From Cenococcum geophilum (lineage: Eukaryota): DNA of 64,000 nucleotides. Made by a program: the position numbers and the translations under genes. The stretch covers positions 19,406,001-19,470,000 of the forward strand of contig CP158635.1 in the NCBI GenBank assembly GCA_050273025.1, read 5' to 3'. Shown here in pieces: positions 29,662-33,767 of this stretch. The notes under the pieces are model-generated. The model was not told where the DNA came from and ran no database searches. It worked only from the letters and a program-made list of their open reading frames with translations. Positions within the stretch are counted from its first letter, which is position 1. Each line of letters starts with the position of its first letter.

Positions 29662-30711
<1,050 letters not shown>

Positions 30712-31147
30712 GATTGCGATTGCGATTTCGATTGCGATTCTATCCGTACCCGTTAAACGATTTCGGTGAGGACTAGAGTGTTGAGATTTTATCGACGGAT
30801 ACGGAGTTTCGGCAGTCAGATGCGGAGTAACATGCAGAGGCCCGCGCCGATTTGGATAAACCCTGGACTTCGAATTTGCGGCCCCTTGCATTTACGCCAC
30901 AAATTCTAGAACTTGCAAACGTGAATGTCTATATAGATTACGGCTTGGAATAAAGGTAGACTAAAAGCTCCTTGAGGCGCTCATAGTTTTCTATTTAACA
31001 GTGACTTTCACAGCCAGGTCCTCAGTTGATCGTGTGAGGCATCAAAAGTGACGTAAACTTTTCCGTATCCCGGACTATGCAAATGCTAGAACCCAAGTCC
31101 GAAAATAGAACACAAAAGAAATCTACAACAACCGGTAACTTAGCGCG

Positions 31148-31560
31148 CTACGGTACAGATTCAGTCCGAGTCTTCTTGGCTATCGGAACCTCTGCTTCAG
31201 CATCAACAGCCGCATTAAGCCCCCTCTTCTCCGGCTCAGCGACTAATCCGGCCTCTGCATGCGCTCCAAATTTGCTGTGTTGATATTTTTGACATAAAGA
31301 GAGCTGTACCTTCAAGCCCAATTTGCAAATTGTTCTCCTTCTCGCAATGTTGATTCGATAATTTTAAACCTAGAAACATTGGATAGAAAGTCGCCCACAG
31401 GCTGGTATGGAGACCTGTAGTGCGGATGTGGGTTGTGGTTGCTGCGAATCGATGTGAAGCCTTCGTGCGAATTGCCGTTTGTGTGGTCATTGGAGTCATT
31501 CACGCCATTAGCATGGTCGTTTGTGCCATTAGTAGGTGCTTCTTCTACTGGAGGACACAT
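31148..31560 (-). pseudogene. LYS20: Homocitrate synthase remnant with the catalytic core deleted
   Basis: The N-terminus DFLSNVSRFKIIESTLREGEQFAN is diagnostic of fungal HCS. It is fused to ICKLGLK in another frame, then after ~50 nt to a C-terminal-like tail (AEPEKRGLNAAVDAEAEVPIAKKTRTESVP*). Total length is only 413 bp. Confidence 0.88.
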
Positions 31561-31622
31561 TATGAGAATTGCAGAGTTGTAGGAAGGAAAAAGAAGCGGT
31601 GGGAGTGAAAGGTTTTTGTAAG

Positions 31623-31629
31623 TGAGTCA
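31623..31629. promoter_or_regulatory. Gcn4/CpcA recognition element TGAGTCA
   Basis: Perfect consensus 63 bp upstream of the ATG of an amino-acid biosynthetic gene; function is inferred only. Confidence 0.45.
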
Positions 31630-31706
31630 GGCCAGTCCGGTGTAGGTTGATACGCTCTAGCCTAATTATTAAATTTTCCTCTTCCAAGTTTTTCTTATTG
31701 TAAAAC

Positions 31707-31894
31707 TGTCGACTTGAATCGGACATACTTATTACCGTCTTACCACTGTCTTAGTTACCTACCTTGACTCGGTTATCGACTCGGTCATCAAGTCGGTTAC
31801 CGACGTAGTCTCCTACCCCTTCTTTATGTATATATAGAGGCTCTAGAGCCACATCTAATAGACAGAGTTCTCATTCCTTATCGTCCGTTTAACA
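31707..31894 (+). mobile_element. 188-bp solo LTR (Copia-like) in the homocitrate synthase promoter
   Basis: TG...CA ends with TSD AAAAC (31702-31706, 31895-31899). The internal motif ttatgtatatatagaggctctagagccac resembles ttatgtatattagggctcttagagccac in the Copia LTR at 42429. Confidence 0.82.
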
Positions 31895-32109
31895 AAAACC
31901 AACTTTCCTAGAGATGCAATAACTCCCCCCGACTTCATTACAGTTATCTGTGAGCTTTACCAAATGGCCTGGAATCCTTCACAAGAGCATAGTAAAGGCA
32001 ATAAGATGGATTTTCAATTTCAATTTGAATGGCATTGATGGAGAGCCGAATCGGCCATCTCCTTTCGTTCTGGACTTTCCCTGGGCACCTACGAACCTGC
32101 ATGAGCCTT

Positions 32110-32735
32110 TCAAGCCCCCTTCTTGAAATCAAATGGTTTCCTCGTAAAACTTTTCCCCTCAGTTCTATCTGTTAGCCACTTGTTACCTGGCAAGTCATCA
32201 GTCACCCCTAGAATTGCATTCTCCATATAAATATGCTGTACTGCTGAACAAATCTCTCTCCCCAGTCCTCCAACCCTGGGAACATGGTGGCCATGCTCGT
32301 CATCCCAGGCCGACGTTTCGTCGCGTTTTCCGCATAAAATGTCTTCGTCAATGACCCCGAGATTGATTTCTGTTTGCTCCTGCTCTTTGTCGTAGTTGAA
32401 AGTCAAAGAGCTTCCGCACGTGCCGCAAAAGCCACGATACGCGAACGACGAGGATTTGTATATCTTGTAGGCAGGGTTCTCTTTGAGAGGGGGAGATATA
32501 TTGGCGGTCGGGAACGCACAGTTCTGAGGCAATATGCTTCCTGTGTGCTTGCGGCACATTGTGCACTGACACGTACCATTCTAGAATATGTTAGGAGAGT
32601 TGTGAAGTTCATAACTTTGAATGGTCCTACAAGGCTGGGAGGCCACTCTGCGTCCTTAGGGAAGATGATAGTAAATCTGACAGCTCCACAAAGACATCCG
32701 CCCGTGATACTCCCTGGTCGAGATGAAGGAGCCAT
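32110..32735 (-). CDS. GFA / Mss4-like (DUF636) zinc-binding protein, intron 32581-32630
   Basis: GGCLCGAVRF, CQCTMCRKHTG and RGFCGTCGSSL motifs; the intron restores the frame. Confidence 0.9.
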
Positions 32736-33767
32736 TTGTAGTTGAAATACGAGTTTTCAAGGTTGTTATTAGAGAAGGAGTTTGATAAGTATTTCCTTTG
32801 GCCGTTACCATGCGATATTTACTATGAGTAAGTCTCCCAGGGCCTTCAAAAAGCGCTCACTAGATCAGTACCAACCTTTGGAGAGGGGGTTGTGAGGGGC
32901 AATATATCAATTCGCGAAGGGCGCGCCAAGGCGATCATACGCAAACGACACGAGAACGTGTGACTGCTCCTGCACGGTTGACGTCGGTGACATGGTAATA
33001 GTATGTAAGTGGCTGAATTAGTCCAGGAAGGCATTGTGGAGGATTGGATGACTATCATTCCCTCACAACTACTACAAGTCTCCCTCATGAACGTCACTAG
33101 AAATGATACGGGTAGAGGAAGGCGTTAGAAAGGCTAGATGTTTTGCAATGGTCTACATTAGAAGCAAGAACATATGTGTCCAAGATAAAAGACTTAATGT
33201 ACGTAAATGCAAATAGGATGTCCCGTATAAACAGAAGTATCTATAGGATTGTTAAGATGCTGATATGCTTTAATAGAGAAATATCGTCGCAGTAGCTGGT
33301 GAATATTAAACGAATGTCCGTGGAGAGAACATTGCATAACCGGTTTTTCGGGCAGATACCAGTAAAGAGGTTAAAGCAAGCAAGTTCTGGAAAAGCGCGA
33401 GCCATTTAAACCAATTACGCCTTCGCAAATAGCTTCAGGCGATCTAACATAGCCGAGAACTATAATTTCAGTGCGGCCCAACGAAACCTTTAATTGCTAA
33501 AGAGAATTGCACAAATTCTTCTGCATGCCCAATGAAGTTCTTCAAATACTCGTGACCATGGCTCCGGGCTTGTAGCCGAGGCCGCCGAAGTTGCCGCAGC
33601 TAAATGACAAACTTCCATCTCAAACAGTCTAAGGACCGCCATATCGTGGTTGACATACACTGTCCATAAAGGGCTAAATCATGTCTACGCTGAAGTTCTC
33701 ATGATTGGCCGGCTGGTCTCATTCTCCAGATTCTATCGCCCCTGTTTAGGATATCTCTTCTGCTGCC

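Follow-up and report, generated by a model that had tools for sequence, protein, structure and literature searches.

The closest described counterpart of the locus reported here is the functional homocitrate synthase of fungi (HCS; EC 2.3.3.14), which combines the HMGL-like family PF00682 with PF22617 and whose nearest example is that of Glonium stellatum (OCL02389.1). In Saccharomyces cerevisiae the enzyme is encoded twice, by the LYS20/LYS21 pair, two HCS genes that both yield active isozymes. Duplicated-gene, or non-processed, pseudogenes form a second point of reference, and a third comes from Cenococcum geophilum itself: decayed pseudogenes of the opposite MAT1 idiomorph have been described from this species, as has extensive structural variation between its strains (Dauphin et al. 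2021, PMC9293092).

Here we describe a wrecked HCS gene in a stretch of 64,000 nt of the Cenococcum geophilum genome, hereafter the window. What is left of the gene resembles functional fungal HCS in its exon 1 and last exon (83-86% identical) and in its place beside the gene for isopentenyl-diphosphate isomerase (IDI), and departs from it in having no barrel domain, a continuous frame in no allele seen and zero RNA in X21, a run of raw RNA reads. With duplicated-gene pseudogenes it has in common the introns kept, the lesions, the long branch, an expressed family member elsewhere and a strain-variable indel; unlike the usual case, the dead copy is here the ancestral, syntenic one. As with LYS20/LYS21 there appear to be two HCS genes per genome, except that in Cenococcum geophilum one of them is a wreck, and as with the MAT1 pseudogenes of the same species a decayed copy lies beside intact neighbours, at a different locus and in a different gene. 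We consider it highly probable that the stump is the last trace of the ancestral syntenic HCS gene, long dead and later shortened, and that lysine synthesis is kept by a second, expressed HCS gene elsewhere. It would be easy to take such a stump, at a locus so conserved, for the sign of a lost pathway and of a symbiont that depends on its host, but neither other strains nor published expression data support this reading. The locus is an ordinary, old, non-processed pseudogene at its ancestral position, and very probably no sign of a lost pathway.

Anatomy of the stump and its strain-variable deletion

When the whole window was searched by tblastn with the 494-aa HCS of Glonium stellatum (P0003), the two ends of the protein were recovered and nothing in between. 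The N-terminal match covers residues 1-80, at 31560..31321 of the minus strand (69/80 identical, E 2e-40), and the C-terminal one residues 459-493, at 31258..31154 of the same strand in a different frame (29/35 identical, E 8e-11); residues 81-458, with the HMGL-like barrel, are absent from all 64 kb, and the remaining two matches are noise (E 3.0 and 8.5). Pfam recognises no family in either HCS piece (0/2 proteins), and by both methods the barrel domain of functional fungal HCS (HMGL-like, pyruvate carboxyltransferase, residues about 60-330) is missing from the stump. The claim of an initial annotation that the catalytic core is gone with both ends kept is thereby borne out, as is its estimate of some 80 open N-terminal codons: the matched 80 residues lie in a frame of 82 codons that runs from ATG to TGA (MCPP...EGEQFANWA-stop). 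Its '~40 C-terminal codons' and '~60 nt' gap are both present, and the exact figures are 36 codons and 62 nt. There is no uninterrupted start-to-stop frame in the window's stump; the exon-1 frame closes at FANWA-stop and the C-terminal piece lies out of frame. The 62 nt between the two pieces (31259-31320) comprise 11 nt of an exon end and 51 nt of an intron start (Table 1). We also considered whether these 62 nt might be a hybrid intron whose removal would put the last exon in frame with exon 1, and discarded the idea: compared with a longer allele on the metagenome contig L001, the letters are those of an exon end plus a normal intron start, and an apparent 'KF' match is intronic.

Table 1. 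Positions in the window of the HCS pseudogene, its parts and its surroundings
Feature	Position	Strand	Basis or remark
IDI gene, conserved downstream neighbour, same strand, intact and expressed	29662..30711	-	match to IDI half of P0063; spliced reads
Last 36 codons of HCS (Glonium residues 459-494) and stop codon	31148..31258; stop 31150-31148	-	83% identity over 35 residues
Junction of strain-variable deletion	31258..31259	-	1,498 nt (L001) or 1,503 nt (X9) missing; one G fits both sides
5' part (51 nt) of intron after ...LGLK (GTACAG...), cut by the deletion	31259..31309	-	L001 comparison
Last 11 nt of exon ending ...LGLK (Glonium residues 124-127), out of frame with exon 1	31310..31320	-	
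Word CAATTTGCAAA	31322..31332	-	QFAN in exon-1 frame, (A)ICK in next frame
HCS pseudogene exon 1, codons 1-80 (MCPP...EGEQFAN), still open	31321..31560	-	86% identity to Glonium HCS residues 1-80
Short high-copy repeat, 130-410 nt upstream of HCS start codon	31690..31970	.	contig depth; also in L001
GFA-domain gene, upstream neighbour, intact and expressed	32110..32735	-	PF04828, E 6.9e-10; 191 codons plus stop

Four public runs were compared with positions 30000-32800: X1, X5 and X9, each as assembled Logan contigs, and X21. The junction, for which the initial annotation had proposed a check with spanning reads, is crossed by contigs of two of them, from 30000 to 31853 in X1 (record 1, depth 30) and from 30704 to 31853 in X5 (record 10), with 0 differences in either case; since the window itself may derive from X1, and X5 may represent the same strain, the independence of this support for the short allele is limited. 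The X9 contig (record 17) agrees with 30000-31258 and with 31258-31609, but for one difference over both parts together, and carries 1,503 extra nt between them. When JGI metagenome contigs were scanned for a 32-base word of exon 1, a single contig, L001, came up; blastn shows it to match the window at 99.1-99.7% identity over 6.25 kb, with 1,498 extra nt at 31258; within the stump itself the two differ at a single site, located in the intron part. A search of public runs placed the window stretch in root and 'fungus' metagenomes as well. Because the separately assembled contigs of X1 and X5 share the junction, and those of X9 and L001 are longer, the missing core is a real strain-variable deletion and not an error of assembly.

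On the same evidence, that a full gene is really present here and the assembler dropped 1.5 kb of it is extremely unlikely. Other samples do have 1.5 kb more at exactly 31258, as such a collapse would have it, but two sets of Logan contigs, one at depth 30, read straight through the join, no loose ends occur at 31258-31320 among those listed for X1 or X5, and the longer form would still give no working gene. The intact gene that had been named as the case against a loss did not turn up, the longer allele of other strains being itself broken. Rare variants may be dropped from contigs, and a minority of nuclei may carry the long allele. The species is known for its cryptic lineages, and the 1.5 kb indel at 31258 provides a clean presence/absence marker with which strains can be told apart. 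A separate small indel between strains lies at 31122-31123, between the stop codon of the stump and IDI, where three X21 reads have insertions (9 nt, 2 nt).

Decay of the longer allele and an older 5' lesion

The longer allele restores the core and not the gene. L001 was read in three frames and then aligned to the Glonium protein by a custom frameshift- and intron-aware dynamic programme, which found it collinear with HCS from residue 128 to residue 494, with at least 8 introns kept. Along this length small deletions shift the frame at residues 215, 237 and 269, Q403 has become a nonsense codon, and two splice donors are broken, one following residue 151 (AAAGGT) and one within residue 355 (ATATGT); a 4-nt loss at residues 346-347 is probable as well, masked by the programme's choice of another donor; 387/468 matched codons are identical to Glonium, with 3 stops. 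The HCS gene was dead before its core was deleted, and the long allele, core included, is equally dead.

Its 5' part bears an older wound. The segment of the long allele that should correspond to residues 81-127 cannot be aligned to Glonium HCS; after ...EGEQFAN, the next frame reads (T)ICKLGLK, in which ICKLGLK equals Glonium residues 121-127, and past ...LGLK the L001 contig continues with a normal intron (GTACAG ... CTGAC branch site ... TAG acceptor) and then AKILTHVRC. This 5' deletion and its frameshift are common to the window, L001 and the X9 contig, and since all three have them, the lesion predates the 1.5 kb deletion. The word CAATTTGCAAA can fit within the codons for EQFAN as well as within those for AICK, and to judge from these letters the copy at 31322..31332 may be the scar of an older microhomology deletion. 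By likeness to the read-through ORFs P0010 and P0012, AA/TTGGGC (break after AA) was considered as a mutated donor of intron 1; the ICKLGLK match and the real intron fit a microhomology deletion better. The history that we propose would begin with this early deletion between two such words, in which codons 81 to about 120 would have been lost along with intron 1 and the frame shifted; small frameshifting deletions, a nonsense codon and losses of splice donors would have followed; in the lineage of the window an end-joining deletion of about 1.5 kb, with an overlap of 1 nt, would then have taken out the stretch from the second intron through codon 458, the longer dead allele persisting in other strains; and the enzyme would come from the second HCS gene, expressed from another place in the genome, and lysine synthesis would thereby be kept. 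In short, this is an old pseudogene with a later, strain-variable deletion.

Could the ancestral gene instead have been mutated by RIP once a second copy arose? The initial annotation saw no obvious RIP, and strong RIP is indeed absent from the gene and present in its AT-rich surroundings. The stump lies inside a gene island of ~20 kb (roughly 22-42 kb, 45-60% GC) between AT-rich blocks (26-40% GC), at 1-22000 and 42500-64000, which hold no ORF of at least 130 codons and are strongly RIP-like, with TpA/ApT of 1.6-1.7 and (CpA+TpG)/(ApC+GpT) of 0.25-0.59. The usual thresholds for RIP are 0.89 for the first index and 1.03 for the second. The pseudogene leans slightly towards RIP (0.90-0.98 and 1.11-1.19, against 0.58-0.72 and 1.25-1.36 in the neighbouring genes), but its TpA/ApT barely reaches the threshold, its second index never falls below it, and its GC content of 43-44% is far above that of the RIP-like blocks. 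Of its 53 amino-acid differences, 42 can be assigned to a single unambiguous base change, inferred from the protein comparison, and 24 of these run from GC to AT against 13 from AT to GC, a bias that nevertheless lies within ordinary mutation bias. A second family member does exist, to go by the published gene table (PMC5023957), yet a single C-to-T nonsense codon stands among the counted lesions and the others are deletions and splice-site changes. For these reasons RIP seems to us an unlikely cause of death.

The other way in which the stump might be more than debris is that its 82-codon ORF, or its transcript, has been kept for a new use, for example as a small protein with the HCS N-terminal tail. 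Exon 1 is open, the only site at which window and L001 differ in the stump falls in the intron part, and a model of 83 residues, 666283, is reported in Supplementary Data 10 of Peter et al. 2016 (PMC5023957), a table of regulated genes, as KOG 'isopropylmalate/homocitrate synthase' in MCL family 1085, with an RPKM of 16.75 in free-living mycelium and a 9-fold lower value, 1.8, in mycorrhiza. Against this, RNA depth in X21, of which about 12% of the run was read and whose strain has many fixed differences from the window, is 0 over 31222-31691, compared with 8-37 on IDI and 6-10 on the GFA gene; the published 16.75 RPKM thus meets zero X21 reads on exon 1, and strain or growth condition may differ. 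The difference between strains is below 1% over the whole locus, so that chance alone can be expected to leave an exon of 240 nt open; HCS is at its least conserved in residues 1-49, where functional members other than the Glonium pair are 29-65% identical to the stump; and the tail past residue 80 is a product of frameshift. We therefore regard such a new role as very improbable.

Orthology, synteny and the neighbouring genes

The pedigree of the dead gene can be read from two maximum-likelihood trees (21 and 38 rows) that included the conceptual translation of the long allele, with stops and frameshifts written as X and residues 81-127 left out. In both, the pseudogene is sister to Glonium stellatum HCS, with support of 100/99; its terminal branch measures 0.17-0.22 changes per site, that of Glonium 0-0.001. 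The two proteins are 88% identical overall and 91% in the core, a region in which functional HCS of other orders share 94-97% of their residues with Glonium. To judge by its sequence, the pseudogene is the ortholog of the Glonium gene and has long been evolving without constraint.

Position tells the same story. A fused model of Bipolaris maydis (P0063, HCS + NUDIX) aligns first to the stump and then to IDI, with order and strand kept, and HCS and IDI accessions are consecutive in three Pleosporales, Paraphaeosphaeria, Karstenula and Didymosphaeria. This conserved order and strand of HCS and IDI mean that the stump sits at the ancestral HCS position and is no stray fragment. Neither does it look like a processed (retro-copied) pseudogene, for the long allele has at least 8 introns and the locus is syntenic. 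HCS and IDI are same-strand neighbours across Pleosporales as they are in the window, and at least two public gene models fuse the pair into a single protein (Bipolaris maydis, 665 aa; Paraphaeosphaeria sporulosa KAK7187630.1, 814 aa); it is because of such fused models that IDI proteins are grouped with HCS in 90% clusters. Two further oddities of the databases came to light: one HCS sequence, P0354, goes under two names, Cadophora malorum and 'MAG: Rickettsiales bacterium', while a fungal-type HCS, P0097, is entered under the tree Carpinus fangiana, and both look like fungal contamination.

The genes on either side are intact, as the initial annotation had supposed, and in the RNA of X21 introns are spliced out at 30216-30281 and 30401-30484 in IDI and at 32581-32630 in the GFA gene. 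Beyond these two neighbours lie a RING-finger gene and an F-box gene. Over the 3' half of IDI, 30000-30280, the stranded X21 data also include oppositely oriented reads (depth 9-14), among them reads in which intron 30216-30281 is unspliced and which have their own set of variants; they may represent an antisense or read-through transcript, or DNA carry-over. The short repeat on the other side of the stump stands out by its summed contig depth, which reaches 8,360 against ~30 beside it in X1, 1,870 against ~5 in X5 and 1,890 against ~7 in X9, and suggests hundreds of copies genome-wide. Many contigs terminate inside it and RNA reads accumulate on it in X21; its internal inverted repeats are weak (16 nt, 88%).

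The second homocitrate synthase and lysine synthesis

What had given the stump its interest was the possibility, raised in the initial annotation, that lysine biosynthesis has been lost. The gene was already dead before its core went, and the lysine-pathway rows of Supplementary Data 10 of Peter et al. 2016 (PMC5023957) contain a separate HCS, 659150, with 459 residues, the IPR entry 'Homocitrate synthase, fungi and archaea', the same MCL family 1085 as the 83-residue model, and RPKM values of 165 in free-living mycelium and 74 in mycorrhiza. The same table lists homoaconitase (684652; 830 residues, RPKM 30.7 and 14.1) and saccharopine dehydrogenase (653295; 389 residues, RPKM 59 and 29). The loss of biosynthesis is therefore not supported, and the alternative offered beside it, a relocated or replacement HCS copy, is the one that the expression of 659150 favours. 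On these annotations and RPKM values, lysine synthesis is very probably retained and the active HCS that of another copy, 659150 being the candidate.

Lengths bear on whether the 83-residue model is this very stump. The window's stump has 82 codons plus stop where the table has 83, and the GFA gene 191 plus stop where the table has 192, the same offset of one; the table's IDI model, at 204 residues, misfits the window's IDI, about 265 by hand count. The agreement of stump and GFA gene with the published models is suggestive, not proof.

A true loss of HCS, which would make Cenococcum geophilum auxotrophic for lysine by nature and dependent on supply from its host or from amino acids of the soil, has several things to recommend it. 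In none of the alleles seen (X1, X5, X9, L001) is the orthologous gene alive. Among the best 120 of 7,875 matches to the Glonium protein, and in the 20 clusters examined, there is no HCS named for Cenococcum and no full-length HCS of the Glonium type besides that of Glonium itself. The fungus is routinely cultured on a standard medium that contains casein (PMC5023957, PMC9293092), and casein in the medium means that routine culture is no proof of lysine prototrophy; an amino acid permease, moreover, is among the genes most induced in symbiosis (PMC5023957). Set against this are the strongly expressed 459-residue HCS and the expressed homoaconitase and saccharopine dehydrogenase, since later lysine steps that are kept and expressed argue for a working pathway. 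Even Podosphaera, an obligate biotroph, has an HCS in the match list of the Glonium protein. The database negative, too, is a weak one, for the coverage of Cenococcum geophilum is uncertain: exact look-ups of six window ORFs in the protein database found 0/6, and the best match of the window's F-box protein is a Logan/ENA cluster (98% identity, 62 members). Nor does X21 weigh heavily here: exon 1 attracts no reads from any paralogue at 80% likeness or more, and with a read overlap of only about 90 conserved bases this null tells little about a diverged second HCS. Auxotrophy is accordingly, in our estimate, a distinctly improbable reading, and we found no report of an HCS pseudogene or of lysine auxotrophy in Cenococcum geophilum in the literature searched; 'lysine' does not occur in the main text of PMC5023957, PMC9293092, PMC11799279 or PMC12910237, nor HCS in that of PMC9293092.

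If a second gene does the work, as we favour, its origin invites speculation. Several proteins were considered as the live copy, among them P0185, P0130, P0131, P0044, P0096 and P0135, and set aside, each standing beside a named member of Pleosporales, Mycosphaerellales or Helotiales with the exception of P0185, which alone adjoins the Glonium pair (93/88), yet which nothing ties to Cenococcum geophilum. The working HCS might be an anciently diverged or foreign copy, and hence a non-orthologous replacement of the ancestral gene of the HCS-IDI locus in a lineage turned mycorrhizal. This we put forward tentatively, as a doubtful but not far-fetched idea: the same dearth of full-length Glonium-type HCS among the matches and clusters named above is a hint in its direction, given that another gene of the species, that of the F-box protein, does have its 62-member Logan/ENA cluster at 98% identity, and 659150, at 459 residues, is about 30 residues shorter than the HCS of Dothideomycetes (484-500), which was counted in its favour. 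If true, a core gene of amino-acid synthesis would have been replaced by a non-orthologous copy. As a last observation from the published table (PMC5023957), all four lysine-pathway entries, namely 659150, 684652, 653295 and the 83-residue model, are 2.0- to 9.2-fold lower in mycorrhiza.
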